This document shows, piece by piece, positions 5,046 through 59,712 of a stretch of 59,712 bases of DNA. The DNA comes from Paratractidigestivibacter sp. (GTDB taxonomy: Bacteria > Planctomycetota > Planctomycetia > Pirellulales > Thermoguttaceae). The notes beneath the pieces were generated by a model that was given only the letters and a program-made list of their open reading frames with translations, ran no database searches and was not told where the DNA came from. Where the stretch lies: assembly GCA_963628165.1 (NCBI GenBank), contig CAVGEG010000002.1, positions 20,678 to 80,389 of the forward strand. The letters are read 5' to 3'. Each line of letters begins with the position of its first letter. Within the stretch, counting starts at the first letter, position 1. A program made the translations under genes and the position numbers.

Positions 5046-5133
5046 AAGCGGCTCCTTAAAAACAACGGCGTCAGTCAATACGTAATTACCCTCCTAAGTA
5101 TAGAGATCGTAAGAGATAAATCAAGAATTTTCA

Positions 5134-7212
5134 CTACGCATTCTTTTCCTGAATCATCGAGTTGAACTCTTCCTCCGTCTTTAGAGGAATGCCGAGTTCG
5201 TTCGCTTTGTCGATCTTGCTTTGCCCCGGCTTGGCGCCGACGAGGAGAAAGTCCGTTTTCTTCGAAGCCGAGGACGTCGCCTTCCCTCCCAAACGCTCGA
5301 TCGTCTCTTTAATCTCCACGCGACCATATCCGTCAAGGGTTCCCGTCACGCAGATCGTTTTTCCTTCCAGCGGTCGGAATTGACTCTCCGGATTCGTCGT
5401 CTCTTCAGGAAGCTCCATCTCCAACCCTTCGTCGCGCAATTCCGAAATGATGCGCGCGCCGTTGGGAGAATGGAAGAAATGATAAAGATTTTCGGCCAAA
5501 ATTTTTCCGATACCGTCGACAACGGCGAAATCATCGGCGCGTTCGACCTCTTCGATCCCCTTAAAACCGCGATATTTATTCACGATCGCCTTAGCGGTTT
5601 GCACGCCGATTCCCTGAATAGAAAGAGCGGCGAGAAGTCTTGCTGGCCCCGCGGTTTTGCTCGCGGCAATCGCTTTGATTAACTTCTCGGCGGAGCGTTT
5701 TTGAAACCCTTCCAGATTTAAAAGGTCTTCAACTTTGAGTCGATATAGATCGGCGAAGCTTTTAACGAGAACGCGCGGTTCCTCTAGGAGGCCTGCGAGG
5801 GACGGGGAGGTCAGTTTTTCCACGAGGGAATCGCCGACGCCGTCGATATCCATCGCGCCTTTCGACGCGAAAAACGCGAGTCTTTCGCGAAATTGCGCGG
5901 GGCACTCAGGGTCGGTGCAACGAATGAACACGCCGTCTGGATCGCGCCGCAGTTCCGCACCGCAACTGGGGCACGCCGTCGGAAAAACGTACGGCGGGTG
6001 CGGATCGTTGGGATCGCGCAAGTACGTTTCGACCCTGACGACGTTGGGAATGATTTTACCCGCTTTTTCCACGACGACGACGTCGCCGACGCGCACCCCC
6101 AAAGTTTTGATAATTTCAACGTTATGAAGACTCGCGCGGGAAACGATCGTCCCGGCGATCGACGCGGGCTCCAGCTCCGCGACGGGGGTGACGACGCCCG
6201 ACTTTCCGACCTGAACGATAATATCGCGAACGCGGGTCGTGGCTTCGTATTTCTCGAATTTGCAGGCGACGACCCATTTCGGATATTTAGCGGTCGCGCC
6301 GATTTCTTCGCGCGCGGCGAAGTCGTCGACTTTTAAGACGATACCGTCCGCCTCGAAATCGAGCTCTTGCATCTTCTCCTGCATCTCGGGGACGTACGCC
6401 GCCGCTTCTTCGAACGTGTCGAAACGTTTAATAAGAGGAGCCGTCGCAAATCCGAATCCGCGCAACTTTTGCATAAACACAAAATGGGTCGACGCCACCT
6501 CGCCGGGATCGGTGCCGGTAGAATGGGCGAAGAATCGCAACCTTCGCTCGGAGCAGACCTTCGGATCGCGTTGCTTAATCGTCCCGGCGGTAAGATTTCG
6601 CGCGTTGGCGTACGGTTTGAAGTCGCGTCCCGTCGCGAGAGCGAGGGCGCGCGCTTCCTCGTTAAGGCGCGACAAATTCGAGTTGGTCATATAGATTTCG
6701 CCGCGCGCCTCCAAGAACGCGGGGGCGTCGGCGGGGAGGCGTAGGGGAACGTCGCGAATCGTTCGGGCGTTGGCGGTGATATCTTCGCCAAAGACGCCGT
6801 CGCCGCGCGTCAGAGCGCGTTTAAACTCGCGATTCTCATAGATCAACGACGCGGCGACGCCGTCGATTTTGAGCTCGCAAACCCACGCCAACGGAGAGCT
6901 GAACCCTTTCTGAGCGGACTGTGCAAACTCGCGCAACTCCTCTTCGTCGTAGACGTTCGCAATCGAAAGCATCGGGATTTCATGACGCACGACCTCGCCC
7001 CTCCCCTCCAATTTTTCGCCGACGCGCCGCGTGGGGCTCGAATCGCTCGCTAAATCGGGAAATTCGCGTTCAAGAGCCTCCAAACGTTTCATCATAAAAT
7101 CGTATTCATGATCGGAAACGTCGGGGGTCGCTTCCACGTAATAGAGTTGGTCGCATCGAAGAATTTCACGCGTCAGGCGTTCGATTTCACGTTCGGCTTC
7201 AGTTCGCGTCAT
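5134..7212 (-). CDS. ligA: NAD+-dependent DNA ligase
   Basis: It has the KxDG adenylation motif (CELKIDGVA), a Cys4 zinc finger (CPSCGAEL...CTDPECPAQ), an HhH region and a C-terminal BRCT-like segment (ICVTGTL...FLLVGAKPGQSKIDKANELGI). The start is taken at MTRTEAERE (7212). Confidence 0.95.
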   Translation of the reverse strand: MTRTEAEREIERLTREILRCDQLYYVEATPDVSDHEYDFMMKRLEALEREFPDLASDSSPTRRVGEKLEGRGEVVRHEIPMLSIANVYDEEELREFAQSAQKGFSSPLAWVCELKIDGVAASLIYENREFKRALTRGDGVFGEDITANARTIRDVPLRLPADAPAFLEARGEIYMTNSNLSRLNEEARALALATGRDFKPYANARNLTAGTIKQRDPKVCSERRLRFFAHSTGTDPGEVASTHFVFMQKLRGFGFATAPLIKRFDTFEEAAAYVPEMQEKMQELDFEADGIVLKVDDFAAREEIGATAKYPKWVVACKFEKYEATTRVRDIIVQVGKSGVVTPVAELEPASIAGTIVSRASLHNVEIIKTLGVRVGDVVVVEKAGKIIPNVVRVETYLRDPNDPHPPYVFPTACPSCGAELRRDPDGVFIRCTDPECPAQFRERLAFFASKGAMDIDGVGDSLVEKLTSPSLAGLLEEPRVLVKSFADLYRLKVEDLLNLEGFQKRSAEKLIKAIAASKTAGPARLLAALSIQGIGVQTAKAIVNKYRGFKGIEEVERADDFAVVDGIGKILAENLYHFFHSPNGARIISELRDEGLEMELPEETTNPESQFRPLEGKTICVTGTLDGYGRVEIKETIERLGGKATSSASKKTDFLLVGAKPGQSKIDKANELGIPLKTEEEFNSMIQEKNA

Positions 7213-12117: not shown

Positions 12118-12193
12118 AATAACGGCAACGTATAATGAATATGCGCTTTCATCGCCTTAAAGCGTGTTTTTCCCCATACAGAGGATAAGACTT

Positions 12194-15100
12194 ATGAAAA
12201 AACTCCTATGCGCGTTCGCGATTTGCGCGACGCTCCTCTTATGTCTCGAAACCCAGGCGCGGCAATTTCCCGGCAATGACAACGACCGACCTATGAATAC
12301 GGTCGAATCGGTGCGTCGCGCGATTAACGATATGATAACGCAGTTTGGCGACGAATACGCCGACGGCGAAGCCTATCTCGAAGAACTCGACGCTCTCGAA
12401 AAAGAAGAGCCCAAAGACGCAGCGTGGGGAGAACGGTTCGCCGCGTTCCGTCGCAAAGCGCTCCTCGCGCTCCCCGAACTCGACGACCTTGAACTCGTCG
12501 TCGTCAGAACGAACCGTCTTCCCGCTGTCGGCGATGACTTTATGACAATCGACAAAGTCTCCAAGGGCGGATGGAACGCGCAACTCGGGATTCTCTCGAA
12601 TCTTCGCGATCCTGAACCGACCTTCACGACGATCTATCAGCCCGAGAACGGGCGCCCGATCCTCGAGCCCGAGCTTAACTGGGACGGCGAACGCATCATG
12701 TTCACAAGCGTCTCGGAAGACAATAAGCGCTGGGCGATCTTCGAAATCAACGTCGACGGAACAGGACTCAAGACTCTTTCCCCGACCGATCAGCCCGACG
12801 TCGACTTCTTCGACTCTTGCTATACCCCCGAAGGAAAGGTCGTCGCTTGCTCTAACGCGGGCAAACAGGGTCTTCCGTGCATCAACGGTTCCGACCCGAT
12901 GGCGAATATCTACCTCATCGATCCGGAAACCAAGAAAGTTCGCCAACTTACCTTCGAACAGGACTCCGATTGGCATCCGACTCCGTTGAAAAACGGTCGC
13001 ATCATGTATTTGCGCTGGGAATACAGCGACATCATGCACTATTACAGCCGCATCCTCTTCCACATGAATCCGGATGGAACGAACCAAGCGGAACTCTACG
13101 GCTCCGGGTCTCTCTTCCCGACCGCCTTCAAGCACGCGCGCGAGTTCCCCGACTCCTCCAAGATCGTCGGTATCGGCTCTGGACACCATGGGCGCGGCGA
13201 CACCGGTCGTCTTCTCATCATCGATCCGACGATCGCGCGCAAGTATCCCTTCCGTTATCGTCCGACCAGTCTCGAATGGGGGCCTGAAAACACGCAATTC
13301 GACGCGCATCCCGACGTCCTTCCCGCCGAACAAACCGGTTTCGTCGCCGAAATTCCTGGATACGGACGCGACGTCGTCGGAAACGTTCTCGACATGCAGT
13401 CCACCGGACTCAAATATAACTTCACTTTCCCCTATCCTCTTTGCGAAAACTACATTCTCGTCAACTGCGAAATTGACGGAGCCCCCGGAACATATGGGCT
13501 TTATCTTGTCGATACCTTCGACAATATGACCCCCATCAGCGTTATTAAGGGCGAAGGATACTTCTTCCCCACCCCTCTCGTCGAACGCGATCTTCCCCCC
13601 GTGCTCCCGAACCGCGTTGAAGAAGGCTCCAAAGAAGCGACCGTCTTCATCACCGACGTGTACAACGGCTTAGGAACGAAAGACGTTCCGCGTGGCGAAA
13701 TCGTCGGTCTCAAGCTCTTCGCCTATCACTTCGCGTATCTCCACACCGGCGGTCACGAATCTGTCGGCGTCCAAAGCAGTTGGGATATCAAACGCCTTCT
13801 CGGATATGTTCCCGTCGAAGAGGACGGCTCCGCCTTCTTCAAGATTCCCGCCAACACGCCGATTTCGATCCAACCGGTCGACAAAAACGGCGCGGCGATC
13901 CAACTCTTCCGTAGCTGGTTTGTCGGCATGCCCGGCGAAAACGCGAGCTGCAACGGTTGCCATGAATCTCAACTCGACGCCACGCAGTCCGTCTTGACAA
14001 TGGCGTCGCGTCGCGAACCCAGCGAGATCCAAGATTACCTCGGCTCGGCGCGTCCGATCACCTTTGAGCTCGATCTCTATCACCGCGTCGTCAAAAAGTA
14101 CTGCATCGGTTGCCATGACGGCTCTAAAGACGATCGTCCTTCCTTCGCTGACGCAAAATCCGCTTACGACAACATCCATCCCTTCGTGCGACGCCCCGGT
14201 CCAGAAACCGACATGGACGTCCTTCCCCCTTACGAATACCACGCGTCGACGAGCGAACTCCTCCAGATGCTCGAAAAGGGGCACTACGGAGTTAAGATCG
14301 ACGACGAAGCGTATCGTCTGATCGTCAACTGGATCGACTTCAACGCTCCATGGCGCGGCAAATGGGGCAACGAACAAGAGTCGAAGCGTCGTCTTGAACT
14401 CTCCGAACTCTACGCCGATTCCGCCGCGGTCGACGTCGAATCCGAATACGACGCTCTCCTGAACGAACGCCGCGCTATGCCCGCGCCCGAATTCGTCCAG
14501 CCTGAAAAGACGCCTGAACGCAAAGACGATCTCGGCTCCGCCTGGGCCTTCGACGAAGCGACCGCTAAAGAGCTCCAGAAGCAGGCGCTCGACGGCGGCG
14601 CTGAGACGAAGACGGTCGAACTCACCCCCGGCGTCAGTATCGAATTTGTCCGCATCCCCGCGGGCCAGTTCATCATGGGTTCTCTCGACGGATGCTGGGA
14701 CGAATATCCTCGCGCCGTCGTCACGATCGACAAGCCTTTCTGGATGAGCAAGACGGAAGTCACGAACGCGCAGTACGAAGTCTACGATCCGGAACACGAC
14801 ACGCGTTATATCGAAGAACATGGTAAAGACCACATCGTTCCCGGTTATATCGCGAACCATCCGAACCAGCCCGTCGCGCGCGTAAGCTGGAACGAAGCGC
14901 AACGTTTCGTCGAATGGCTCCGCACGGAAAAGGGCGTCAACGCCTCGCTCCCGACGGAAGCGCAATGGGAATGGGCCGCGCGCGCGGGTAGCGCCGAAAA
15001 GTTCTACTTCGGACCTTTCGAAGCGGACTTCTCGAAGTACGCGAACCTCGCCGACGCGGATCGTCGAAGACTCTACACGACGTGGGAAAACGGCGCGACG

Positions 15101-15445
15101 ATTCACGTGCGTCACAACTATCCCGAAAATAGCGTCTTCCCGTTGCGCGACGATCGTTTCACCGACCACTGGTTCATCGTCGATTACGTCGCTCAAAACA
15201 TCCCCAACGCGTGGGGGCTTTACGACATGATCGGAAACGTCGCCGAGTGGACGCGAACCGATTATAAAGCATATCCTTACAACGACGCAGACGGGCGCAA
15301 CTCCTTCGACGCCAAAGAGCGCAAAACCGCTCGCGGAGCGTCGTGGGCCGATCGCCCCAAGATCGCCGGCAGCGCTTTCCGCCAGGCGTATCTCCCGTGG
15401 CAGAAAGTGCATAACGTCGGAATCCGTCTCGTAATCGAAGACTGA
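12194..15445 (+). CDS. Secreted multidomain protein: N-terminal propeller-like region, two CXXCH motifs, C-terminal FGE/SUMF1-type domain
   Basis: The start at MKKLLCAFAICATLLL looks like a signal peptide. CNGCH lies at 13949-13963 and CIGCH at 14102-14116. The C-terminal approximately 300 aa carry FGE-sulfatase family blocks (RVSWNEAQRFVEWL, WGLYDMIGNVAEWT, RGASWADRP). Confidence 0.85.
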   Translation: MKKLLCAFAICATLLLCLETQARQFPGNDNDRPMNTVESVRRAINDMITQFGDEYADGEAYLEELDALEKEEPKDAAWGERFAAFRRKALLALPELDDLELVVVRTNRLPAVGDDFMTIDKVSKGGWNAQLGILSNLRDPEPTFTTIYQPENGRPILEPELNWDGERIMFTSVSEDNKRWAIFEINVDGTGLKTLSPTDQPDVDFFDSCYTPEGKVVACSNAGKQGLPCINGSDPMANIYLIDPETKKVRQLTFEQDSDWHPTPLKNGRIMYLRWEYSDIMHYYSRILFHMNPDGTNQAELYGSGSLFPTAFKHAREFPDSSKIVGIGSGHHGRGDTGRLLIIDPTIARKYPFRYRPTSLEWGPENTQFDAHPDVLPAEQTGFVAEIPGYGRDVVGNVLDMQSTGLKYNFTFPYPLCENYILVNCEIDGAPGTYGLYLVDTFDNMTPISVIKGEGYFFPTPLVERDLPPVLPNRVEEGSKEATVFITDVYNGLGTKDVPRGEIVGLKLFAYHFAYLHTGGHESVGVQSSWDIKRLLGYVPVEEDGSAFFKIPANTPISIQPVDKNGAAIQLFRSWFVGMPGENASCNGCHESQLDATQSVLTMASRREPSEIQDYLGSARPITFELDLYHRVVKKYCIGCHDGSKDDRPSFADAKSAYDNIHPFVRRPGPETDMDVLPPYEYHASTSELLQMLEKGHYGVKIDDEAYRLIVNWIDFNAPWRGKWGNEQESKRRLELSELYADSAAVDVESEYDALLNERRAMPAPEFVQPEKTPERKDDLGSAWAFDEATAKELQKQALDGGAETKTVELTPGVSIEFVRIPAGQFIMGSLDGCWDEYPRAVVTIDKPFWMSKTEVTNAQYEVYDPEHDTRYIEEHGKDHIVPGYIANHPNQPVARVSWNEAQRFVEWLRTEKGVNASLPTEAQWEWAARAGSAEKFYFGPFEADFSKYANLADADRRRLYTTWENGATIHVRHNYPENSVFPLRDDRFTDHWFIVDYVAQNIPNAWGLYDMIGNVAEWTRTDYKAYPYNDADGRNSFDAKERKTARGASWADRPKIAGSAFRQAYLPWQKVHNVGIRLVIED

Positions 15446-22830: not shown

Positions 22831-24966
22831 ATGGATACCAAAAAAGTTTCAATTGTTGAATTACTGTCTTTGAAAAGATTGAATATTCCCGTCTACCAGC
22901 GTAACTATTCATGGGGGGAAAAAGATTGCAAACGTCTTTTCTCTGATATTACATCACTAATAGAAGATACGTCTGTTTTTAATAATGAGAATGATTACTT
23001 CTTAGGATGTATTGTTTCAGTCAAACAAGGTAAGGGCACTCGTTACATTATTGACGGACAGCAACGATTAACGTCAGTCACTTTATTATGTCTAGCCATA
23101 TATCATATAGTTATTCATGGAGATAAACAAGTTGAAGACGAACATTTAGCTAGTAATTTATTCACTAATTATTTAGCCAAAGATCGTTCACTATGTCAAA
23201 ACTATATGAATGAAATCAAACTACACTTAAATCCTGATGACCAAGAAGCCTTAGAGGCATTATTTCTGGATAATGGCAAACAACTTCCACAATCAAGGGT
23301 CACAGCAAACTACAATTATTTTAAAAAGCTAGTACTAAAATCAAACTATAGTATACAGCAGATAATTGATGCGATAGAAAATGTTGTAGTTGTCGACATT
23401 CTCCTCGAACAATATGAAGAGCCTCAACGAGTATTTGAAAGTTTGAATAGTACTGGAGTAGGACTCACTGAATCAGACAAGATTCGCAATTATATTCTCA
23501 TGGATCTTCCTAGTGAAAGCCAAGACGCTCTTTATAAGTCGTACTGGAGGGAAATCGAAACTTGTTGCAATCTCACTAACACAGAAAATGCAATTTCTGA
23601 TTTTTTTTCAACATTCCTCACTCTTAAAAATAATAAACGTCCTACCAAAGACCAAGTATACTTAACCTTTCAAAAATCTTTTAGTAAGAAAGAAGTCCAA
23701 AATGAAACATTTTTACGGGATCTCTTAGCATATGCACGCAGATATTCGTACCTTTTGGCTCCTTTCCATCAATCTCTAGACAGCGTTATCGACAATTGTG
23801 TCTATAGGATAAATTACATTAAGAGAACTATTGTAAGACCTTTTTTCCTTGAAGTTCTAAGATTATACGAAAATCACGAACTTTCTTTAGAAGATACGCG
23901 ACAAGTTTTCCTTCTTACAGAAACATATCTTGTGAGAAAGGCTGTTTGTCATAATGAGACTAATGCTCTCAATAAAGTTTTTACGCAGCTTTACCGAGAG
24001 ATTATAAACATTGACAAAACAGCTAATCAATTTCTTGAAAAAGTCACCAATAACCTTTTATCACGCAAACAAGGCTCAGGAACTGAATTTCCAACAGATA
24101 ATGAGTTCATTCAGGCTTTTTCTCAAAGTCAGACCTTCACTGACTTGAAAAACTATAAAGAATATCTTCTCGAACGCCTCGAATGTTATGACAATCCGGA
24201 ATCTATTGACGTCTACAAGAAACTTAACGATAAAAAGATTTCGGTAGAACACATTATGCCACAAAAGCTTAATGAGGCATGGCGAAATGAGCTAGGTTCC
24301 AACGCCAACAATATATGGAGCAATTGGATCCATCGTATAGCCAACTTAACATTTTCTGCCTACAATAGCAGTATGAGTAACAGTCCGTTTAAAATTAAAA
24401 AAGAAAAGGGCTACTCAGATAGCGGTTTTCATTTAAATAAATACATCGCTAGTTGCAACAAATGGACATTAGAAGAACTAGAAGCAAGAAACAAAATTCT
24501 TACTGAGAGGGCTCTACAAATTTGGAGACGACCTAAGAATTCATATACACCTCCAACTAAATCATATCAGGAATGTACATTAAAAGATGCTCCCTTCTAT
24601 GACATGAAAGGTCTCCATCCTGTTCGATTCAAATATGAAGGAACTGAATACTCTGTTAATAACTGGAAAAAACTTGCCGTAGGAGTAATTCGTCTTCTTT
24701 ATGGTATTAATCCCTCTCTAATTGACCAAATCATGAAAACTTCAGAACCTCGTTTATCCTCTCGTTTTCTGTCTACGAAGGAAAGAAAACCAGGAGTTGA
24801 ACCAGAAGAAATAGCCCCTGACGTATACTTTAACACCTGTAATCCAACAAAGGAAAAAATAATCATTCTAAGCCGTCTCTTCGAATATTATTCAATCGAT
24901 AAAGATAAGCTTATTTTCTCTCTTTCTGAGAGAAAACCTCGTCAAAAGAGCAAAAAGCTGTTTTAA
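22831..24966 (+). CDS. DUF262 + DUF1524 (GmrSD-like) nuclease, probably a modification-dependent type IV restriction or defence protein
   Basis: The N-terminus carries the DGQQR motif (YIIDGQQRLTS). The C-terminus has a His-Me finger-like block (ISVEHIMPQ...WIHRIANLTFSAYNSSMSN). The gene is strongly AT-rich compared with its flanks. Confidence 0.85.
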   Translation: MDTKKVSIVELLSLKRLNIPVYQRNYSWGEKDCKRLFSDITSLIEDTSVFNNENDYFLGCIVSVKQGKGTRYIIDGQQRLTSVTLLCLAIYHIVIHGDKQVEDEHLASNLFTNYLAKDRSLCQNYMNEIKLHLNPDDQEALEALFLDNGKQLPQSRVTANYNYFKKLVLKSNYSIQQIIDAIENVVVVDILLEQYEEPQRVFESLNSTGVGLTESDKIRNYILMDLPSESQDALYKSYWREIETCCNLTNTENAISDFFSTFLTLKNNKRPTKDQVYLTFQKSFSKKEVQNETFLRDLLAYARRYSYLLAPFHQSLDSVIDNCVYRINYIKRTIVRPFFLEVLRLYENHELSLEDTRQVFLLTETYLVRKAVCHNETNALNKVFTQLYREIINIDKTANQFLEKVTNNLLSRKQGSGTEFPTDNEFIQAFSQSQTFTDLKNYKEYLLERLECYDNPESIDVYKKLNDKKISVEHIMPQKLNEAWRNELGSNANNIWSNWIHRIANLTFSAYNSSMSNSPFKIKKEKGYSDSGFHLNKYIASCNKWTLEELEARNKILTERALQIWRRPKNSYTPPTKSYQECTLKDAPFYDMKGLHPVRFKYEGTEYSVNNWKKLAVGVIRLLYGINPSLIDQIMKTSEPRLSSRFLSTKERKPGVEPEEIAPDVYFNTCNPTKEKIIILSRLFEYYSIDKDKLIFSLSERKPRQKSKKLF

Positions 24967-35362: not shown

Positions 35363-35403
35363 AAAAAAAGAGAGACGTCCATCCGATAAGGAGGGACGCT
35401 CTC
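35363..35403 (-). terminator. Rho-independent terminator after the Cys-rich protein gene
   Basis: On the minus strand, gagagcgtccc...ggacgtctctc forms a stem with one bulge and is followed by TTTTTTTAT. Confidence 0.5.
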
Positions 35404-35464
35404 AGAACTTTTGGTAAAAGCCGCCGGGTTAGCTAGCAGGCTTTTTCAGCAGAGTCAATTCAAC

Positions 35465-36100
35465 TCAGTTGGCGCAAGCGGGAGCGCAAGGAGCGACAGG
35501 CGCGCAAGCGGACGGAGCGCAAGCAGGACGGCAGACCTTGAAGCTGAACTTGAAGCAGGGCTTGCAGGGCTTGCAGCAGACAGGCTTGCAGGGCTTGCAG
35601 CAGACAGGCTTGCAGGGCTTGCAGCAGACGGGCTTGCAGGGCTTGAAGCACTTCTTGAAGCAGAGGGGCTTGCAAGGAGCGCAAGCGGGAGCGGCGTCGC
35701 AAGCGGGAGCGCAAGGAGCGACGGGTTCGCAAGCGGCGGGAGCGGCGTCGCAAGCGGGAGCGCAAGGAGCGACAGGCTCGCAAGCGGCGGGAGCGCAAGC
35801 GGCGGGAGCGCAACAGCAGAACTTAACGCGGACGGGGCAAAGAGCCTTGAGGTTCTTGAAGGGAGTGAAGGGCTTGCAACAAGGAGCGCAAGGAGCGGCG
35901 TCGCAAGCGGGAGCGCAAGGAGCAACGTCGCAAGCGGGAGCGCAAGGAGCGACAGGTTCGCAAGGAGCGACAGCTTCAGCGGCTTCAGTGACGGCAGCTT
36001 CAGGAGCCGGAGCGGCTTCTTGAGCGGCTTCTTGAGCGAAAGTGAAAGAGGCGGAAAGGACGAGCGCCAACGCCGCTAACGAGCTCAGAAATTTTTTCAT
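35465..36100 (-). CDS. Secreted Cys/Pro/Ala-rich tandem-repeat protein (211 aa, about one residue in five is Cys)
   Basis: This is the only one of five overlapping frames with an AGGAG Shine-Dalgarno site and a signal peptide (MKKFLSSLAALALVLSASFTFAQ). The body consists of EPVAPCAPACDAAP and CKPCKPVC repeats. Confidence 0.7.
   Translation of the reverse strand: MKKFLSSLAALALVLSASFTFAQEAAQEAAPAPEAAVTEAAEAVAPCEPVAPCAPACDVAPCAPACDAAPCAPCCKPFTPFKNLKALCPVRVKFCCCAPAACAPAACEPVAPCAPACDAAPAACEPVAPCAPACDAAPACAPCKPLCFKKCFKPCKPVCCKPCKPVCCKPCKPVCCKPCKPCFKFSFKVCRPACAPSACAPVAPCAPACAN
35561..35647. repeat. Tandem 24-nt repeat (about 3.6 copies) inside the Cys-rich gene
   Basis: The unit cttgcagggcttgcagcagacagg starts at 35561, 35585 and 35609, and a partial fourth copy follows. 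It encodes the CKPCKPVC units on the minus strand. Confidence 0.9.
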
Positions 36101-36216
36101 TTGGAAATACTCCTAAAAATTAGTTGCGGGGCGCCTACATGGGGTCTACTCAACCTTCATGCGTCGCCTAAACACTTACGATAGGAAATAGTCAAATCTC
36201 CTAACCATTTCTCACA

Positions 36217-36244
36217 AGTATAACTACCCATCTTGGCTTGTCAA
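36217..36244 (-). promoter_or_regulatory. Sigma70-like promoter for the Cys-rich protein gene
   Basis: On the minus strand, TTGACA (36244-36239) is followed by a 16-nt spacer and TATACT (36222-36217). This implies a 5' UTR of about 110 nt. Confidence 0.45.
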
Positions 36245-36489: not shown

Positions 36490-38229
36490 CTACTCCTTCA
36501 CGATCGCGATCTGCGCAAAATACGCGGCCTCAAATTCCCATCCGTTCGGTTCGTTCACGATTTCCAGCGTCGTCTCCTGCCCCGCGAACTCGTTGAGAGG
36601 AATCTCAAAACGCGCCCACCCCGACGCGTCGACCGTCGTCGATCCAATCGTAGCGTTTAGAAGTTCGCGTCCGTTCCCCTTAACTTTCAGGACGTAATCG
36701 CCAATCTGATTTCCGTCGGCGTGATGCGACGCGACGACAACGAGCGTATCCCCTTTCTCAGGCGTTACGGTCTTCGAAAGAACCGCCCCCACTTCGCGAC
36801 TCTCGGGGTGCGTCATGAAAACGTTCTCGCGTCCGCGATAGGATTCGCGATACCCCGGATTCATGTCGGGCCCCATATGCGACACGCTGAAACCGGAGAA
36901 GTAACGATCCAAAATTTCCTCGTTCGAGTACATGCGGAACTTAATCTGCGCGAGCTCTTCTTCGTTAAAGAGCGCGGCGTCCCCCGTCTCAGGCGCGTCC
37001 GCGGGATTGGCGCACGACGTCGTTTTGCTCGGGACGACGGGAATCACGGGAATATAGAAGTACTTTTCGCCATTCTCATCAACGATGGATCCGCCGTCGC
37101 GAAGGAGCGCTTGAACGGCGATTTTTTCGCACACGTCGATTAGCGCGGGGAAGTTATACGCGGTGTGGCTGAACACGCCCGATTCGTCGAGCTTTTCGGA
37201 GAAGCGCGGCGGCAGCGCTTTGAATCCGAGAGTCGTGAAGAGGATCCCCGCCGCGTTCGACGGATTGCAGTCGGAATCTTGCCCGCAACGCGTCGAAATG
37301 ACGATCGTCTTATCAAGATCCCCCTCCCCGTAGAGAAGTCCGACCAAGATATACGCGCCGTTAATCTTCGCGTCGATATTAAACGGGGCGTCCTTGCCGG
37401 AGCAGGACCACTGGCGATACTCGGGATTATGCTGATACTTTTCGTTGATCTTATTCCAGCATGCTTCCCAATCGTTGGGGAATTCTTGCTTCCACTGGAG
37501 GACGTCGCGCACCATCTCCGCGTATTGCGATTCCGCGGGGATCGCTTCAAGCGCCTTTCGAATGATCTTCTCGACGTCCGTCTCAAAGAACGCTTCGCTA
37601 TACATCGCGCCGACAAATTGCCCCGCGTAGAGACCGTCGCCGTAATTCATCAATCTTCCGAAGGTCTCCCCCATTCTCACGGCGTTATTCGGAAGACCTG
37701 GGGAAACAAGACCGGAGAAGTCCGCTTCGATTTGATAGTCGATATCGTCGGCGCACCTATTGAACGCGGGGTGCCCCGAATTGGGGGGCGCGATCCCCAT
37801 GCGCAGATTCGTGCGTCCCTCATTGTTCGCGTGCCAGAGCATATACTCGCTATTCGCAAAATCGAGCCCTGCTTGGCGGATCGAAACGTCGAGTCCGTAA
37901 TCTTCGAGGGTTTTCAAAAAGGTCATTTCAACATACAAGTCGTCTTGACCAAACGCGTCGTTAATCATCTCAGGACGCCATGTCGGCATATCCCCTTCTG
38001 GGATCATTTTGTCGGTCCATCGAAATTCGGTCGGAGCTCCCCAACAGACGCCGGCGATCTGTCCGATCCACCCGGCCTTCATTTTATCGCGATATTCGGC
38101 GACGGAAATCTTTCGGAACGCTTTAGCGGCGGTCGCGTTATCTTCGGCGCGAGCGGGCGCGACGACCAAACACGCGCTCAGTATCGAGGCGGCGCCAAGA
38201 GCTAGGGAGACAAAATTCTTCTTCATCAC
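36490..38229 (-). CDS. Secreted ADP-ribosylglycohydrolase family protein with a C-terminal beta-sandwich-like extension
   Basis: A signal peptide (MMKKNFVSLALGAASILSACLVVAPARA) is followed by family blocks, including STRCGQDSDCNPSNAAG. Confidence 0.82.
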   Translation of the reverse strand: MMKKNFVSLALGAASILSACLVVAPARAEDNATAAKAFRKISVAEYRDKMKAGWIGQIAGVCWGAPTEFRWTDKMIPEGDMPTWRPEMINDAFGQDDLYVEMTFLKTLEDYGLDVSIRQAGLDFANSEYMLWHANNEGRTNLRMGIAPPNSGHPAFNRCADDIDYQIEADFSGLVSPGLPNNAVRMGETFGRLMNYGDGLYAGQFVGAMYSEAFFETDVEKIIRKALEAIPAESQYAEMVRDVLQWKQEFPNDWEACWNKINEKYQHNPEYRQWSCSGKDAPFNIDAKINGAYILVGLLYGEGDLDKTIVISTRCGQDSDCNPSNAAGILFTTLGFKALPPRFSEKLDESGVFSHTAYNFPALIDVCEKIAVQALLRDGGSIVDENGEKYFYIPVIPVVPSKTTSCANPADAPETGDAALFNEEELAQIKFRMYSNEEILDRYFSGFSVSHMGPDMNPGYRESYRGRENVFMTHPESREVGAVLSKTVTPEKGDTLVVVASHHADGNQIGDYVLKVKGNGRELLNATIGSTTVDASGWARFEIPLNEFAGQETTLEIVNEPNGWEFEAAYFAQIAIVKE

Positions 38230-52994: not shown

Positions 52995-55900
52995 ATGGAA
53001 GATTCAAATAACTATTATCTCGGTCTCGATATCGGAACGGACTCGATCGGCTACGCGGTCGCGAATAAGAACTACGAACTCCTGAAATTCAAAGGGGAGC
53101 CGATGTGGGGCGCGACCCTCTTTGAATCCGCCAAGAACGCGAGCGAACGCCGTCCCTTCCGCACGGGTCGCCGCCGACTCGACCGTCGACAGGCGCGCGT
53201 GAGTCTCCTCAACGAACTATTCGCCAAGGAGATCTGCAAGATCGATCCGAAATTCTTCATTCGCCGTCGCGAAAGCGCGCTCTACGCGGAGGACGCACGT
53301 GACGGGGTCAAGATCTTCGCCGGTCAGGGGATCAACGATATTGAATATTACAAGCAATTTCCGACGATTCACCACTTGATCTTCCGTCTGATGAAGAACC
53401 GCGACGCGCACGACGTTCGTCTCGTCTATCTCGCGTGCGCGTGGCTCGTCGCCCACCGCGGTCACTTCCTCATCGATATCGAGCCAGAGAAAGCCCTCGA
53501 CGTTCTCGACTTCCAGAGCGCCTTTGTCGACTTGAATCAATGTCTCGAGAGTAACGGGTACGCGCTCCCTTGGGTCGACGGACTCAAAGCCGAGACGTTA
53601 AAGGAAATTCTTCAAAAACGAAGTCGACTAACGGAAAAAAAGGGTGAAATTACCAAAGTACTCAAAAAAGACGCGAAAGGAGAACCCGACGACGACGAAA
53701 ACGCGACCCGTTCCTTCAAGGCCAGTATCTTCTCGGATCTCCTAGCGGGGAAGAAGATCAGCGCGGAGGCTCTCTTCGAGAATCAGGAGTACGCCGACGT
53801 CGAAACTTTTAGCGTCAAGCAAGGGGACGACGAACTCGCGCCGATCCTCTCCGTTCTTGGCGACGACGCGGAAATTCTCCTGAAAATACGCGCCCTCACG
53901 GACTGCGCGAGTCTCGTCGCCGTCATGAACGGCGCGGAAAGCATCTCCGACGCCAAGATCAAGGTCTACGATCAGCACAAGAAGGATCTTAGCTACCTCA
54001 AACATTTTGTCCAAAAATACCTTCCCGATAGTTACGACGACCTCTTCAAGAACGCCGAAAAAGACAACTACGTCGCCTACAGCAAGAATATCAAACGCGT
54101 CAAAGGGGGCGTCGGCGAGAAATTCGCCTTTGTCAACCAAGAGATTTTCAGCGACAACCTTCGTAAGATTCTTAAAAACACAGAAGAAAAAGTCGCCGAG
54201 GAAGATCGGCAGGCGTTCCGCGAGATGTATGACCGTCTAGAAAAGTACGACTTCCTCCCGAAGCAGAAGAACGGGGACAATCGCCTGATTCCGTACCAGC
54301 TCTACTACGTCGAACTCGCGAAGATCCTCGAGAACGCGGCAAAATATCTCCCCTTCCTCAACGCGGCGGACGACGACGGGATCACGACGAAACAGAAGAT
54401 CCTCGATACCTTTACGTTCCGCGTTCCCTACTTCGTCGGGCCCCTCAAGGAAGAGGGGGACGACAAATCGAAAAACGCATGGCTTGTGCGCAAGGGAAAA
54501 GGGCGCATTCTCCCCTGGAACTTCGATAAGCTTGTCGACAAAGACGCCTGCGAAAAAGAGTTTATTAACCGAATGACGAATAGCTGCACGTACCTACCGG
54601 GGGAAAAAGTCTTACCGGAGAATTCCCTCCTCTATAGCGAATTCAAGGTTCTCAACGAGTTGAATAATCTCAAAGTGGACGGGCTCTCAATTCCAGTCGA
54701 CGTCAAAACATGCCTCTATGAAGAGCTCTTCATGAAAAAGCGACGCGTCACTGTGGCGGCAATCAAAAAGTACTTGACGGCGCGTTGCCTACTCAAAGAA
54801 GGGAACGAACTCTCGGGGATCGACGACACGATCAAATCCTCCCTCAAATCATATCACGACTTTAAGAAGCTCTTGGACGCGAAGGTTCTCACGGAGACGG
54901 AAGTCGAGGAAATTATCGAACACGCCGCGTATACGGAAGATAAAAGGCGAATGCGCCAATGGCTGAAGCACAAATATGAACAACTTTCGGAGGAAGACGT
55001 CAGATATATTGCGCGACTCGACCTCAAGGGCTTCGGACGCCTGTCGCGACAGTTCCTCAACGGGATCGTGGGGAAACTTCAAAAAACGGACGACGCCGAA
55101 TACACGATTATCGAGTGGATGCGCAAGACGAACATGAATCTCATGCAACTCCTTTCGGATGACTTCAACTTTGCGAAGAAGATCGAGGAGTTCCGTAGGA
55201 AATTCTACGAAGGAAAGGCGCGAACGCTCGAGGAAGAGCTTGACGACGCGTACGTCTCTAACGCAGTAAAGCGCCAGATTTACCGTACCATGGCGGTCGT
55301 CGACGAAGTCAAAAAGGCGATGAAGAGAGACCCCGAGAAGATCTTCGTGGAGATGGCGCGCGGGGGAACCCCCGATCAGAAGGGCAAGAGGACGACGAGT
55401 CGACTCGAGCAGCTCAAAGAACTGTATAAAAAGATCAAGACGGAGGACGCTCGAGAGCTCCAAGAAGAGCTGAATTCTATGCTTAGCGGAAAAGACGAGG
55501 GGCGACTTCAACAAAAGAGGCTCTACCTCTACTATTTGCAGGAGGGGAAATGCGCCTACACGGGGGATTCGATCGACCTTAAATACTTGTCGGGCGATCG
55601 CTACGATATCGACCATATCTACCCGCAGCGCTTAGTAAAGGACGACAGTCTCCTGAACAACATGGTTCTCGTCAAGAGCGAAGAAAACGGCCGTAAAAGT
55701 GACAAGTATCCGATTCCCCCGGACGTCCGAAGTAAAATGAAGGAGTTCTGGAAGCATTTGCGCGAGGTCGGGCTCATGACGGATGAAAAGTATCGCCGTC
55801 TGACGCGCACGAATGAATTCACGGAAGACGAAAAAATGGGCTTCATAAACCGTCAGCTGGTGGAGACGCGACAATCGACGAAGGTCGTCGCGAACTTGCT

Positions 55901-57104
55901 CAAAAAGCGGTTTCCGAATTCGGAGATCGTTTACGTCAAAGCGGGGCTTGTCTCGGAATTCCGTCAAGAGTTCGACCTTCCGAAGTCGCGATTAATCAAC
56001 GACCTGCACCATGCGAAGGACGCGTACCTGAACGTCGTCGTCGGCAACGTTTACGACATGCGCTTCTCAAAGAAGTTCTTCTCCCTTGAGAAAGATAAGG
56101 AGTACAACGTGCAGGTGGGCAAGCTCTTCAAGAAGGATCATTATTACCAAGGCGAATGTTACTGGGAGCGCGATCGCGGCTTTTCCCTCGTGCGGAAAAC
56201 GATGGAGAAGAACGCCGTTCATCTGACGAAGTTTACCTACCGTCGTAAAGGCGGCTTCTTTGACCAGAACCCTCTGAGGAAAAAAGCGGGGCTCGTTCCG
56301 CGAAAGAAAGATTTACCGACAGAAAAGTACGGCGGATACAATAAGGCGGCGGCGTCTTTCTATGTTCTTGCGCGCTATACGATTGGCCAAACATGCGACG
56401 TGATCTTTGCCCCGATCGAACTTCTTGACTTGCAAAAGTACCACGGAAGTGCAGAAGACACGAAAGAATGCGTCGAGGAATCGATCCGCGAAATAATCGG
56501 TAAAGAGCCTCAAGACGTCGAGCTTATGTTGAATGGGCGAATCCTAAAGATTCGAACGCTCATTTCTCTCGACGGAACGCTCATGACGCTTAACGGAAAA
56601 CAAAATGGCGGTAGGCAAATAATTCTTTCTCCTCTATTGTCCCTTTGCCTAGGAAAAGACGAAGAATACGTCCAAAAGCTTGAATCGTTCATGAAAAAGC
56701 TAGAAAGCAATAAGAATCTCCTCCCTAGCAAAGAACACGACAAGATTTCTAAAGAGAAAAATCTTCTTCTCTTCGATCGTCTAGTGAATAAATTGAAGAG
56801 TTGGCCGTTCATTAATATCCCCAACAACCCCCTCGCTGAGTTACAGAAAGAATCAGCCCGAAAGAAATTTGAATCAGCGGATGAACTCGTACAAATAAAA
56901 ATATTAGTGAATCTGATCCAATACATAGGAGGTAAAAAACAGTCCTGCAACTTTACGGACATTGGCGGTAAAAAAACAGTGGGATCTATATCAATGAGTA
57001 GCAAACTATCCAACTGGAAGGGAAAATATAAGGAAGTGCGCATTGTCGACAGATCGTGCGCTGGGTTATTCGAATCACAAAGTAAAAATATATTGGAGTG
57101 GTAA
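52995..57104 (+). CDS. cas9: Cas9, type II-A (1369 aa)
   Basis: RuvC-I is YYLGLDIGTDSIGYAV (D12). The Arg-rich bridge helix is RRPFRTGRRRLDRRQARVSLL. HNH is YDIDHIYPQ (D873/H874) plus NNMVLV. RuvC-III is NDLHHAKDAYLN. The size is similar to SpCas9. Confidence 0.95.
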   Translation: MEDSNNYYLGLDIGTDSIGYAVANKNYELLKFKGEPMWGATLFESAKNASERRPFRTGRRRLDRRQARVSLLNELFAKEICKIDPKFFIRRRESALYAEDARDGVKIFAGQGINDIEYYKQFPTIHHLIFRLMKNRDAHDVRLVYLACAWLVAHRGHFLIDIEPEKALDVLDFQSAFVDLNQCLESNGYALPWVDGLKAETLKEILQKRSRLTEKKGEITKVLKKDAKGEPDDDENATRSFKASIFSDLLAGKKISAEALFENQEYADVETFSVKQGDDELAPILSVLGDDAEILLKIRALTDCASLVAVMNGAESISDAKIKVYDQHKKDLSYLKHFVQKYLPDSYDDLFKNAEKDNYVAYSKNIKRVKGGVGEKFAFVNQEIFSDNLRKILKNTEEKVAEEDRQAFREMYDRLEKYDFLPKQKNGDNRLIPYQLYYVELAKILENAAKYLPFLNAADDDGITTKQKILDTFTFRVPYFVGPLKEEGDDKSKNAWLVRKGKGRILPWNFDKLVDKDACEKEFINRMTNSCTYLPGEKVLPENSLLYSEFKVLNELNNLKVDGLSIPVDVKTCLYEELFMKKRRVTVAAIKKYLTARCLLKEGNELSGIDDTIKSSLKSYHDFKKLLDAKVLTETEVEEIIEHAAYTEDKRRMRQWLKHKYEQLSEEDVRYIARLDLKGFGRLSRQFLNGIVGKLQKTDDAEYTIIEWMRKTNMNLMQLLSDDFNFAKKIEEFRRKFYEGKARTLEEELDDAYVSNAVKRQIYRTMAVVDEVKKAMKRDPEKIFVEMARGGTPDQKGKRTTSRLEQLKELYKKIKTEDARELQEELNSMLSGKDEGRLQQKRLYLYYLQEGKCAYTGDSIDLKYLSGDRYDIDHIYPQRLVKDDSLLNNMVLVKSEENGRKSDKYPIPPDVRSKMKEFWKHLREVGLMTDEKYRRLTRTNEFTEDEKMGFINRQLVETRQSTKVVANLLKKRFPNSEIVYVKAGLVSEFRQEFDLPKSRLINDLHHAKDAYLNVVVGNVYDMRFSKKFFSLEKDKEYNVQVGKLFKKDHYYQGECYWERDRGFSLVRKTMEKNAVHLTKFTYRRKGGFFDQNPLRKKAGLVPRKKDLPTEKYGGYNKAAASFYVLARYTIGQTCDVIFAPIELLDLQKYHGSAEDTKECVEESIREIIGKEPQDVELMLNGRILKIRTLISLDGTLMTLNGKQNGGRQIILSPLLSLCLGKDEEYVQKLESFMKKLESNKNLLPSKEHDKISKEKNLLLFDRLVNKLKSWPFINIPNNPLAELQKESARKKFESADELVQIKILVNLIQYIGGKKQSCNFTDIGGKKTVGSISMSSKLSNWKGKYKEVRIVDRSCAGLFESQSKNILEW

Positions 57105-57976
57105 TGGCGTGGAGAATTGTTGTGGTCTCCGAACGGAGCAAACTCGATTTCAAAATGAACTACATGGTGGTGCGAGGAACTGAGACGACTCGCCTTTTTA
57201 TCGACGAGATCGCCATTTTGATCATCGAAAATCAAAACGTCTCGTTAACGGCATACCTTCTCGCGGCGTTGACTGAACGCAACGTGAAGATCCTCTTCTG
57301 CAACGGCAAGCACGCCCCGGAAATGGAACTCGCGCCCCTCTACGGCGGTTACAACACGTCGCAGAGATTGCGAGAGCAAATCGCGTGGCGCGCGGAAACG
57401 AAAGCGGGAGTGTGGCGCGCGATCGTCGGCGAGAAGATTCGCAATCAGAGCAAACTTTTGCGCGAAATCGGACGCGCGGCGGAAGCGGATCATCTCCTTG
57501 GGTATATCGACGAACTGAAAGGAGACGACGATTCGAATCGCGAAGGGCACGCCGCGAAGGTCTACTTCAACGCCCTTTTTGGCAAGGGGTTCACGCGTAG
57601 CGCGAAGATTCCGCTCAACGGCATGCTTAACTACGGTTACTCGATTCTTCTGGGCGCGGTCAGTCGCGAAATCGTCGCCAGCGGGTACGTCACGCAGCTG
57701 GGGATCCACCACCGCAACGATTCCAATCGCCATAATTTCACCTGCGATCTCATGGAGCCGATGCGTCCCTTAATCGACCGCGTCGTGAAGGATCTCCCAG
57801 CGCGCGATCTCGACCCCGAGCTCAAACAGACAATCGTCCAACTTGCAAATCTCAACGTTCGGATCAACAACGAGGAGCAAACCTTCTTGAACGCGATTCG
57901 CATTTACGTTCGGAGCGTCTTTGACGCGCTCAATCACGACGATCCCAAGTTAATCAAATTCAGCGAAAATGAGTAA
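57104..57976 (+). CDS. cas1: Cas1 integrase, type II
   Basis: It has MAWRIVVVSERSKLDFKMNYMVV, NGMLNYGYSIL and LGIHHRN...NFTCDLMEPMRPLID. Its ATG overlaps the cas9 stop (TAATG). Confidence 0.93.
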   Translation: MAWRIVVVSERSKLDFKMNYMVVRGTETTRLFIDEIAILIIENQNVSLTAYLLAALTERNVKILFCNGKHAPEMELAPLYGGYNTSQRLREQIAWRAETKAGVWRAIVGEKIRNQSKLLREIGRAAEADHLLGYIDELKGDDDSNREGHAAKVYFNALFGKGFTRSAKIPLNGMLNYGYSILLGAVSREIVASGYVTQLGIHHRNDSNRHNFTCDLMEPMRPLIDRVVKDLPARDLDPELKQTIVQLANLNVRINNEEQTFLNAIRIYVRSVFDALNHDDPKLIKFSENE

Positions 57977-58289
57977 TAGATTTATGAGAACGATCGTATT
58001 TTTCGACCTGCCGATCAAGAATCCGACGGAGAAGCGAGAGTATCGCCGATTTCGGAAAGTTCTGATTAAGAACGGATTCGTGATGGTGCAAAAATCGGTC
58101 TATAGCAAATTGGTTCTGAACGCGACGGCGCAGAAATCCCTTGCGAACACGCTCCGCAATGAAGTTCCCGCCGTAGGAACCGTTCAGATGCTCACGATCA
58201 CCGAAAAACAATACGCGGGGATCGCCTTCATCGCCGGCTCGGGGACGAGCGACGTCGTCGATTCCATGGAAAGGGTTATTTTCTTATGA
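57969..58289 (+). CDS. cas2: Cas2
   Basis: It has MRTIVFFDLP...EYRRFRKVLIKNGFVMVQKSVYSKLVLN and overlaps the end of cas1 by 8 nt. An alternative ATG lies at 57984. Confidence 0.9.
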   Translation: MSNRFMRTIVFFDLPIKNPTEKREYRRFRKVLIKNGFVMVQKSVYSKLVLNATAQKSLANTLRNEVPAVGTVQMLTITEKQYAGIAFIAGSGTSDVVDSMERVIFL

Positions 58290-58951
58290 TTTTATGTCAT
58301 CCAGAAATTGAACGCGTCTTCGATTTTTCGGGGAAGAAGATTCCGTCTTTAGTCGTCGAAAGGCCCGCGCTTTTTCGCAAGCTCGTTCTCGACATTTACG
58401 AACAGTGCGACGGAGGCGAGGGAGAGTTCGTCCTTTCCCGAGACGACGTCGTTCAGAGCATGCTTTCGAACGTCGAGTTTATCGACAATTGCGTTCATTA
58501 CGACTTCTCCCCCAAGGCGTTAACGACGCGCATCCTGAAGTCTCTTGAACGCGAGGCGATGAACGAAGTCTTTCATCTCAAGACAGTCGAGCTGTTGCAA
58601 AAGATTCAAGAGTACCTCAACGAGTTGAGCTTTTCGTTCAACACGACCCTTGAATTCACGCGATGCTCGCTTCCGGGACTTCTCAAGTGCGCGGGGGTGA
58701 CGATCCGCGACGACTACGAAGATCCCCTTGAAAGGCTCTTCGACTACATGGAGCTTGTTCGAGAATTCGAGAAAGATCGTATCTTCATCCTTCTAAACCT
58801 GCGGAGTTATTACGCCGACGCGGACGTCGAAGCCTTCTTAGGAGCGCTCGTCGACCATGAGTATCAGGCGTTCCTTCTCGACAATGTCGATCGCCAAAAA
58901 TTACCGTACGAAGAGCGAACGACTATTGACGACGACCTCTGCGAAGTTTAA
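58286..58951 (+). CDS. csn2: Csn2 (type II-A signature protein)
   Basis: It is 221 aa and its start overlaps the cas2 stop in ATGA. It is collinear with canonical Csn2 (SLVVERPALFRKLVLDIYEQ, IFILLNLRSYYADADVEAFL, AFLLDNVD, TIDDDL). Confidence 0.82.
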   Translation: MILCHPEIERVFDFSGKKIPSLVVERPALFRKLVLDIYEQCDGGEGEFVLSRDDVVQSMLSNVEFIDNCVHYDFSPKALTTRILKSLEREAMNEVFHLKTVELLQKIQEYLNELSFSFNTTLEFTRCSLPGLLKCAGVTIRDDYEDPLERLFDYMELVREFEKDRIFILLNLRSYYADADVEAFLGALVDHEYQAFLLDNVDRQKLPYEERTTIDDDLCEV

Positions 58952-59062
58952 AATACAGGTATGAATAGTAGCAAACCTCAGATCCCGATCCTTTCCACGA
59001 AGCTAGTAACTTCGCGCGTTCGTTTTGACGTCCGCACGGGCTCGATTTGGGATTTGAGGGTT
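58952..59062 (+). promoter_or_regulatory. CRISPR leader
   Basis: This 111-nt non-coding segment lies between csn2 and the first repeat. It ends in GATTTGG GATTTGAGGGTT. Confidence 0.7.
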
Positions 59063-59712
59063 GTTTGAGAGTAGTGTAATTTCAGAGTAGTCCAATACCA
59101 ACGCGACTTAATTAGAATTCTTGACGACTTGTTTGAGAGTAGTGTAATTTCAGAGTAGTCCAATACTATACGTTTTAGCGACGCCCTAGGGTCGTCGGTT
59201 TGAGAGTAGTGTAATTTCAGAGTAGTCCAATACCTGGAGCGGCAAAGACGCCGACGGGAATCTGTTTGAGAGTAGTGTAATTTCAGAGTAGTCCAATACC
59301 CGCGTATGTTTGAGGACTAACGCAGGCTAGTTTGAGAGTAGTGTAATTTCAGAGTAGTCCAATACCGCGCGCCTTCTTGGAATCTTGCAACGTCAGTTTG
59401 AGAGTAGTGTAATTTCAGAGTAGTCCAATACAGATATATAGTAGCTACTCGCGATAACTGGGTTTGAGAGTAGTGTAATTTCAGAGTAGTCCAATACTCT
59501 GGCGCTTGCGTCGCCATCCAGCAGTACGTTTGAGAGTAGTGTAATTTCAGAGTAGTCCAATACTACGTGGCGGCGGTTCCGCCTTGCGAGTCGGTTTGAG
59601 AGTAGTGTAATTTCAGAGTAGTCCAATACAAAACTTCAGCCCCTTCTACCTGCAAGCACGTTTGAGAGTAGTGTAATTTCAGAGTAGTCCAATACTACGT
59701 GGCGGCGGTTCC
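59063..59712 (+). CRISPR. CRISPR array: at least 10 identical 36-bp repeats, 9 complete spacers and a truncated tenth; it continues past the window
   Basis: The repeat GTTTGAGAGTAGTGTAATTTCAGAGTAGTCCAATAC starts at 59063, 59131, 59198, 59264, 59330, 59396, 59462, 59528, 59594 and 59660. Spacer lengths are 32, 31, then 30 x7. Confidence 0.98.

Follow-up and report, generated by a model that had tools for sequence, protein, structure and literature searches.

An exported cysteine- and proline-rich repeat protein of animal-associated Thermoguttaceae with a possible role in the cell envelope

The gene, its signals and its reading frame

The stretch of DNA analysed here, 59,712 nucleotides in length and referred to as the window, contains on its minus strand a Cys/Pro-rich gene (ORF 35465..36100, 211 aa) embedded in an otherwise ordinary planctomycete chromosome with DUF1559, DUF1598, FGE-sulfatase-domain and H+-pyrophosphatase genes. 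The host belongs to the Thermoguttaceae and is a planctomycete; an earlier note on this DNA had drawn an analogy with the Cys/Pro-rich envelope proteins of planctomycetes. The gene is preceded by an ADP-ribosylglycohydrolase-family gene (ARH) and followed by a convergent serC, Tex, a FabH-like gene and argininosuccinate lyase. The order SecA-purA-ARH-X-serC-Tex, where X is the Cys/Pro-rich gene, was found in all 12 orthologous loci with enough flanking sequence, and this shared neighbourhood indicates that the gene is single-copy, vertically inherited and chromosomal. Functional links to both immediate neighbours were considered and rejected: to the ARH gene on account of its own terminator, a 3.5-kb insertion between the two genes in L002 and L008, and the failure to find it upstream in L011; to serC on account of the convergent orientation.

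The predicted transcript is monocistronic and runs from ~36210 to ~35363 (-). A sigma-70-type promoter, TTGACA-16-TATACT, lies at 36217..36244 (-) and matches the consensus at 11 of 12 positions, and an AGGAG ribosome-binding site is located at 36110-36114 (-), 9 nt before the ATG; both had been read from the window earlier and both were found again here. When upstream regions were aligned, the -35 element TTGACAA, the ribosome-binding site TTAGGAG and the ATG proved invariant in 12 of 12 loci, with the -10 hexamer positionally conserved. Between the inferred transcription start and the ATG there is a 5' UTR of ~110 nt (36101..36210, minus strand), which had no match in Rfam and is predicted to form two stem-loops. 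The first (~36178-36208 (-)) displays compensatory changes in three of its five predicted pairs, while in the second (~36130-36168 (-)) the GGCG/CGCC base is conserved and the interior varies. RNAalifold additionally pairs UUAGGAGU with A(A/G)UUUCUGA (AUUUCUGA) of codons 3-6; since all of these positions are invariant, covariation neither supports nor refutes the predicted pairing. Among 15 sequences, codons 1-6 and 9-12 show no nucleotide change other than at the wobble positions of codons 3 and 6, and the codons used there have low background frequencies (CTG 9%, TTG 14%, TTT 26%), a combination that points to constraint at the level of the mRNA.

Downstream of the gene, folding revealed an intrinsic terminator at 35363..35403 (-), consisting of the hairpin GAGAGCGTCC...GGACGTCTCTC followed by T7 (U7 in the transcript). 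The terminator claimed earlier is thus present, and its absence from the output of a consensus scanner is explained by its long loop. A GC-rich hairpin with a U run occurs at the equivalent position, in differing sequences, in four of the five other orthologs that were folded (L003, L002, L005 and L008), and no terminator-like hairpin was seen in the fifth (L011). Beyond the invariant codons at its start, the gene's codon usage is strongly shifted relative to the window background, which, together with serC and Tex rather than ribosomal-protein genes, served as the reference: Ala is encoded by GCT in 70% of cases (background 12%) and by GCG in 7% (55%), Pro by CCG in 5% (34%), and Lys by AAG in 89% (57%). 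The same shift was observed in every ortholog by comparison with its own serC and Tex genes. From the promoter, the ribosome-binding site, the terminator, the UTR stem-loops and the codon shift, we infer that the gene is highly expressed.

ORFs of 100 aa or more that overlap 35465-36100 number exactly five, as had been counted before, and it could be argued that one of the others, such as + 35411-36079 (222 aa) or + 35469-36023 (184 aa), is the real product, or that the locus is non-coding repeat DNA. The antisense frames are in fact largely open across all orthologs, and an antisense ORF was the one picked by the public gene calls P0007 and P0008. In Nei-Gojobori comparisons with the three closest orthologs, dN/dS in the sense frame was 0.18-0.47, against 0.03-0.12 for serC, purA and the ARH gene, which indicates purifying but relaxed selection on the Cys/Pro-rich gene. 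Four of the five non-sense frames gave ratios of at least 1. The antisense frame that shares its wobble positions with the sense frame (+ ORF 35469-36023) gave 0.32, as low as the 0.39 of the sense frame, but this is a known and expected artefact of shared third codon positions, and dN/dS by itself cannot tell these two frames apart. Purifying selection on another frame, a possibility raised in the earlier note, was therefore seen in appearance only.

Other evidence separates the frames clearly. The sense frame alone is free of stops in all nine sequences tested; the wobble-sharing antisense frame has one to five stops in each of the nine, and in a further antisense frame that is mostly open, all sequences but one contain one or two. 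ORF 35469-36023 has no conserved start, and the signal-peptide stretch, which is the best-conserved part of the gene, falls outside it. That the antisense frames are open can be traced to the codon set TGC/GCT/CCT/CCC/AAG/GTC, which yields no antisense stops, and the overlapping ORFs appear to be by-products of composition. The invariant -35 element, ribosome-binding site and ATG, the conserved signal peptide, the terminator downstream and the antisense stops together decide in favour of the sense frame, the one chosen in the earlier note. All differences in repeat number between orthologs are likewise in frame. On this comparative evidence we regard 35465..36100 (-) as a real, conserved and separately transcribed gene, and a real gene in any other frame as essentially excluded.

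Architecture of the protein and its family

The 211-aa precursor contains 39 Cys, 54 Ala, 38 Pro, 19 Lys and 14 Val residues. Cysteine accounts for 18.5% of the precursor (39/211) and for 20.6% of the chain that remains after predicted cleavage at A22|Q23 (39/189), so that the "about 21%" given in the earlier note is correct for the mature chain and too high for the precursor. The remaining ORFs of the window have Cys contents of 0-4.4%. Alanine, cysteine, proline, lysine and valine together make up 82.5% of the mature chain, which bears out the composition described there; Pro makes up 20%, and the mature mass is ~19 kDa. The signal peptide, MKKFLSSLAALALVLSASFTFA (residues 1-22; 36035..36100, minus strand), was read directly from the sequence and is of the Sec/signal peptidase I type, with an MKK n-region, the h-region FLSSLAALALVLSA and the cleavage region S-F-T-F-A|Q, in which T occupies position -3 and A position -1. 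In its C-terminal portion (...LSASFTFA|QE), as elsewhere in the peptide, there is no twin arginine, no +1 Cys and no L-x-[GAS]-C lipobox, and no membrane or wall anchor motif was found in the protein. Its Sec-type features, evident already at first reading, are kept in all family members, of which it is the most conserved part, and the product is accordingly predicted to be exported via Sec. AlphaFold2, supplied with a five-sequence alignment, modelled residues 3-27 as a helix but no further secondary structure, at a mean pLDDT of 43; by this model the mature chain is non-globular and has no predicted fold.

The mature chain can be divided into six segments, all encoded on the minus strand. 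The signal peptide is followed by an acidic, Cys-free Ala/Glu/Pro linker (residues 23-46, net charge -5; 35963..36034) that is present in all orthologs. It leads into a first set of acidic Cys repeats of the (E/D)PVAPC(A/E)P(A/V)C type, which in the window take the form (E/D)PVAPCAPAC (residues 47-75, 8 Cys; 35876..35962) and include a 27-nt tandem repeat of 2.6 copies (35883-35953), located, like those below, with Tandem Repeats Finder (TRF). A non-repetitive basic island, KPFTPFKNLKALCPVRVKFCCC (residues 76-97, net +5; 35810..35875), is recognisable in all orthologs and separates these from a second set of acidic Cys repeats (residues 98-143, 9 Cys; 35672..35809), where a 51-nt repeat of 2.2 copies (35685-35795, 96% matches) encodes CEPVAPCAPACDAAPAA. 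A basic CKP(V/I)C(C) block follows (residues 144-193, net +14, 14 Cys; 35522..35671); it includes a 24-nt repeat of 3.8 copies (35559-35650, 97% matches) encoding three CKPCKPVC units, just as the earlier note had described, and the strings CCKPCKPVCC and FCCC quoted there are both present in the protein. The chain closes with a conserved C-terminal tail, CAPSACAPVAPCAPACAN, bearing the motif CAPVAPCAPAC (residues 194-211; 35465..35521 with the stop codon).

All members of the family are built alike, with an acidic N-terminal part of the (E/D)PVAPCxPxC type joined to a basic C-terminal part of the CKPVC(C) type. The 20 complete members have 148-275 aa and 26-51 Cys, and the share of Cys in the mature chain ranges from 13 to 24%. 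In the ten members analysed further, the mature chain measures 188-246 aa, and the charge diblock is kept in ten out of ten, with -8 to -18 in the N-terminal part and +11 to +22 in the C-terminal part. Among their 373 Cys-Cys intervals, CxxxC is the commonest (119), followed by Cx5C (72), CxxC (43), CC (42) and Cx4C (41), and CxC is nearly missing (three intervals; 0-2 per protein). A Pro stands immediately before Cys 142 times. These ten proteins have practically no His, Met, Tyr, Trp or Gly, and each contains 3-11 Phe.

Both the number and the parity of the cysteines vary across the family, with 41-44 Cys inside one species. The variation in repeat copy number that the earlier note had proposed to look for exists between near-identical strains: in the species-level group L002 and L015-L018, where upstream DNA is 99.2-99.6% identical, the proteins measure 233-243 aa, and the differences in length correspond to in-frame gain or loss of units of 4-11 aa in the acidic as well as the basic blocks. 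The number of units in the basic block differs both between orthologs and between strains. Repeat slippage would be free to alter length in this way because there is no fixed disulfide topology to maintain.

Distribution and relation to known cysteine-rich proteins

About 22 orthologous loci with the same architecture were recovered from other assemblies. A search of 5.8 billion proteins returned only four relatives (P0001-P0004), all with a nearly identical signal peptide; a further set, L002-L012 and L015-L022, came to light when GTDB species genomes and JGI metagenomes were scanned. When 1.84 billion cluster representatives were searched exhaustively with an HMM, only the four query members, a fragment (P0005) and a spurious repeat protein (P0006) were found, which amounts to five related gene calls in that collection; none of ten exact translations (three from the window, one sense and two antisense, and seven from orthologs) occurred in a collection of 15 billion proteins. 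The named host records are all Thermoguttaceae, 'Planctomycetaceae', Planctomycetales or 'planctomycete' MAGs. Several records carry hints of their source (rumen, water-buffalo rumen, Hadza gut), and every member whose source can be recognised comes from animal-associated material. The samples behind the database relatives are all metagenome assemblies. Judging from these searches, the protein defines an orphan family limited to one clade of uncultured animal-associated Thermoguttaceae from gut and rumen.

Queries of Pfam, NCBIfam and PDB sequences with a single sequence, Pfam searches with ten members, each on its own at E <= 10, and a search of the family profile against PDB sequences at E <= 10 gave no relevant match to the protein, and no sequence search gave a significant match outside the family. 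In general kind, the protein belongs with the envelope proteins of low complexity and high Cys content that members of the PVC superphylum secrete. Within the planctomycetes, the literature offered the YTV family, whose hosts include Rhodopirellula baltica, Gemmata and Tuwongella, as the only Cys/Pro-rich proteins of such a type. YTV proteins resemble the protein described here in being exported and Cys-rich and in coming from the same phylum and class (Planctomycetia), whereas the latter lacks the YTV motif, has no Tyr and only three Thr, and is small, purely low-complexity and built as a charge diblock; furthermore, its family occupies one Thermoguttaceae clade and YTV extends across the class. 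The YTV model (PF07639) matched none of the ten members at E <= 10. YTV proteins have been recovered from planctomycete wall preparations, where their cysteines are thought to control wall rigidity, and the genes classed as essential in Planctopirus limnophila include that for the YTV protein (PMC8567305, PMC12673574, PMC10632474).

The models for chlamydial OmcA (PF03503, Chlam_OMP3) and OmcB (PF03504, Chlam_OMP6) gave no match either. OmcA and OmcB, which are believed to rigidify the chlamydial envelope by disulfide cross-links, share with our protein the PVC superphylum, small size, export and a very high Cys content, but OmcA is a lipoprotein and our protein has no lipobox Cys, nor is there a developmental-cycle context for it. 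The parallel with Omc and planctomycete wall proteins drawn in the earlier note consequently does not extend to membership, there being no homology to OmcA/OmcB or YTV. Eukaryotic keratin-associated proteins, the hair-matrix family with CCxPx pentapeptide repeats that forms a disulfide-cross-linked matrix, are similar in composition, in repeat grammar ((CCKPV)x4 in L011, CKPCKPVCC in the window) and in being non-globular. By contrast, the Thermoguttaceae protein is bacterial, exported via Sec and equipped with an additional acidic half, and the keratin-associated models (PF01500 / PF13885, Keratin_B2) had no Pfam match at E <= 10. Without any significant match to that family, the likeness is one of compositional convergence, as had been supposed from the outset.

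Metallothioneins and other metal-binding proteins (SmtA, PmtA, SilE, PcoE, CutF) offer a further comparison, alike in high Cys density, disorder and the presence of CxxC and CxxxC. No metallothionein family in Pfam or NCBIfam was matched, so a metallothionein-like parallel, also suggested earlier, fails as family membership. The near-absence of CxC, which is the typical metallothionein motif, the lack of His and Met, the much greater length and the higher Pro content tend to set the protein apart. The absence of a family match means that it is not a YTV, OmcA/OmcB, keratin-associated or metallothionein-family protein.

Possible functions of the exported protein

We propose, tentatively and at somewhat less than even probability, that the gene specifies an abundant protein which, once exported, forms part of the envelope and is cross-linked by way of its thiols. 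The gene would be strongly expressed and its chains exported, whereupon they would pair through their oppositely charged blocks, either with one another or with anionic polymers of the envelope, and be locked by intermolecular disulfides or other thiol chemistry. The outcome would be an insoluble proteinaceous layer of the planctomycete envelope, operating like YTV, the chlamydial Omc complex and the keratin-associated proteins without kinship to any of them. Several features are in accordance with such a scheme. The YTV proteins recovered from wall preparations provide a precedent within the phylum. The Cys/Pro grammar (P-C, CxxxC, CC, CCKPV) is that of disulfide-cross-linked structural proteins such as keratin-associated proteins and minicollagen Cys-rich domains, and differs from the CxC-rich pattern of metallothioneins. 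The lack of a fixed Cys framework fits statistical cross-linking, and the expression signals are of a type usual for major envelope proteins.

The habitats of those members with a recognisable source, rumen and gut, are strongly reducing, and exposed disulfides may be unstable there. No Dsb-, VKOR- or thioredoxin-like genes were found within the window, and the hosts need not possess an oxidising system of the Dsb or VKOR kind. The lack of an anchor motif and of homology to known wall proteins likewise tells against an envelope role. The reducing habitat is the chief weakness of the cross-link reading and keeps alive its main rival, in which the protein is an extracytoplasmic thiol sponge that, in reduced form, binds Cu+, Zn2+, Ni2+, Co2+ or Cd2+ or scavenges oxidants or electrophiles. 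It would be a Sec-exported functional analogue of metallothionein or of SilE and PcoE, which are metal sponges of the periplasm, located in an anoxic periplasm or at the cell surface. In so reducing a rumen or gut, thiols would stay reduced after export, and metals, present as sulfides, would be in short supply. A Cys share of 13-24% of the mature chain would suit this role, the chain is non-globular as apo-metallothioneins are, and unconstrained Cys number and parity suit cluster binding as well as cross-linking.

What makes a sponge somewhat unlikely in our estimation is, besides the want of any metallothionein or metal-binding family match even at E <= 10, the way in which the residues are arranged: hardly any CxC, no His or Met, Pro usually placed before Cys, several Phe, and a conserved charge diblock with no obvious metal-binding role. 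Nor is there a metal-resistance, efflux, sensor or other metal-homeostasis gene adjoining the gene in 12 loci, where the neighbours are housekeeping genes, and in the near-consensus, invariant promoter no metal-regulator operator was apparent. In CutF, a Sec-exported copper sensor with a Pro-rich tail, CxxxC binds Cu (PMC9973294). CxxxC, our commonest interval, is also a recognised copper-binding motif, which favours the sponge and counts against the cross-link reading (PMC9973294).

The combination of a signal peptide with no retention motif leaves room for a product that acts outside the cell, as a secreted adhesive, matrix, holdfast or host-mucus anchor. Such a product could be pictured, by analogy, as a polyampholyte that coacervates with itself outside the cell and whose thiols cure the material or undergo thiol-disulfide exchange with Cys-rich mucins, so that the cell becomes fixed to a surface. 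Conservation of the acidic/basic block architecture is compatible with it, as is dN/dS relaxed with respect to the neighbours. Many surface and adhesin genes vary in repeat number from strain to strain, as this gene does, but slippage produces such variation neutrally too. The recognisable sources are all animal-associated, and one Thermoguttaceae strain is reported to have been isolated on a mucin-based medium (PMC11929135). Passage of the protein across the outer membrane is, however, unsupported, no secretion-system gene is adjacent, and we consider this possibility decidedly unlikely.

Returning to the envelope reading, a bolder version of it can be formulated, which we judge unlikely. The protein would be the main block of an unrecognised envelope or adhesive material, a secreted acid/base diblock with ~40 thiols per chain that assembles electrostatically and is cured through its thiols. 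In that case a single clade of gut planctomycetes would, by expansion of repeats, have evolved de novo its own bacterial equivalent of the keratin-associated proteins, which may stand in there for the YTV wall proteins. Just as novel would be a metallothionein-like protein that is exported via Sec and suited to a periplasm kept permanently reduced; we know of no exported protein of that kind.

From a practical standpoint, strains could be told apart by the in-frame differences in repeat number, and the locus is one at which gene callers sometimes choose an antisense ORF. With regard to the biology of these bacteria, only YTV has so far been tied to the envelopes of planctomycetes, for years described as protein-rich, and to the Cys-rich proteins of their wall preparations, and the animal-gut Thermoguttaceae now provide a second, unrelated family of extreme Cys/Pro content that carries signals of strong expression. 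If its members are thiol sponges, they would constitute an unusual exported analogue of metallothionein. If they are cross-linkers, the family would give a handle on wall building in strictly anaerobic planctomycetes and a clear case of convergence with the keratin-associated proteins of animals.

Conserved leader and start region of the cysteine-rich gene

The 5' UTR and first 12 codons of the secreted cysteine-proline-rich repeat gene (window 35465-36100, minus strand) are kept at the nucleotide level, both in the window (36070-36210, minus strand) and in the equivalent regions of the orthologous loci L001-L011. Within the 12 codons this conservation extends to synonymous sites and rare codons, and the 5' UTR contains two stem-loops, which are covarying or variable in their interior. 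Pairing is possible between the ribosome-binding site UUAGGAGU and codons 3-6 (AUUUCUGA), and also between a GCGCC in the UTR and codons 9-11 (GGCGU). The conserved region had no match in Rfam, and could represent a cis-regulatory or mRNA-stabilising element.

Antisense reading frames

Two long ORFs lie antisense to the same gene on the plus strand (35411-36079 and 35469-36023), and one of these, at 222 aa, exceeds the real 211-aa gene product in length. Nothing but the codon composition of the cysteine-rich gene keeps them open, and antisense ORFs of this kind have occasionally been annotated as proteins by public pipelines, as in the gene calls P0007 and P0008.

The upstream neighbour and an intervening insertion

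The upstream neighbour of the cysteine-rich gene, which adjoins it in most loci, encodes a 579-aa ADP-ribosylglycohydrolase-family protein (36490-38229, minus strand) with its own signal peptide at the N-terminus and a C-terminal extension of ~230 aa for which no Pfam match was found. Export, as predicted from the signal peptide, is unusual for a member of this family. Two lineages carry ~3.5 kb of extra DNA between the two genes, at 2931-5537 in locus L002 and at about 2460-6000 in locus L008. The ORFs in the L002 insertion include one of 373 aa, with a weak sigma-70-like match, and one of 467 aa, which weakly matches the TPR family in its C-terminal part.

Other features of the window, including defence genes

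The 1093-aa protein encoded at 12164-15445 (plus strand) carries both an FGE-sulfatase domain and the middle domain of hydrazine synthase alpha (HZS_alpha). The type II-A CRISPR-Cas locus at 52995-59712 is complete, comprising cas9 (52995-57104, 1369 aa), cas1 (57098-57976), cas2 (57969-58289) and csn2 (58286-58951), followed by a CRISPR array that runs from 59063 to the window end with ~10 copies of the 36-nt repeat GTTTGAGAGTAGTGTAATTTCAGAGTAGTCCAATAC at a period of 66 nt. In an island at about 22.0-25.0 kb the GC content drops to 34-35%, against about 56% elsewhere, and inside it lies a gene for a 711-aa GmrSD-type (DUF262/DUF1524) type IV restriction enzyme (22831-24966), which is probably a defence gene gained horizontally.
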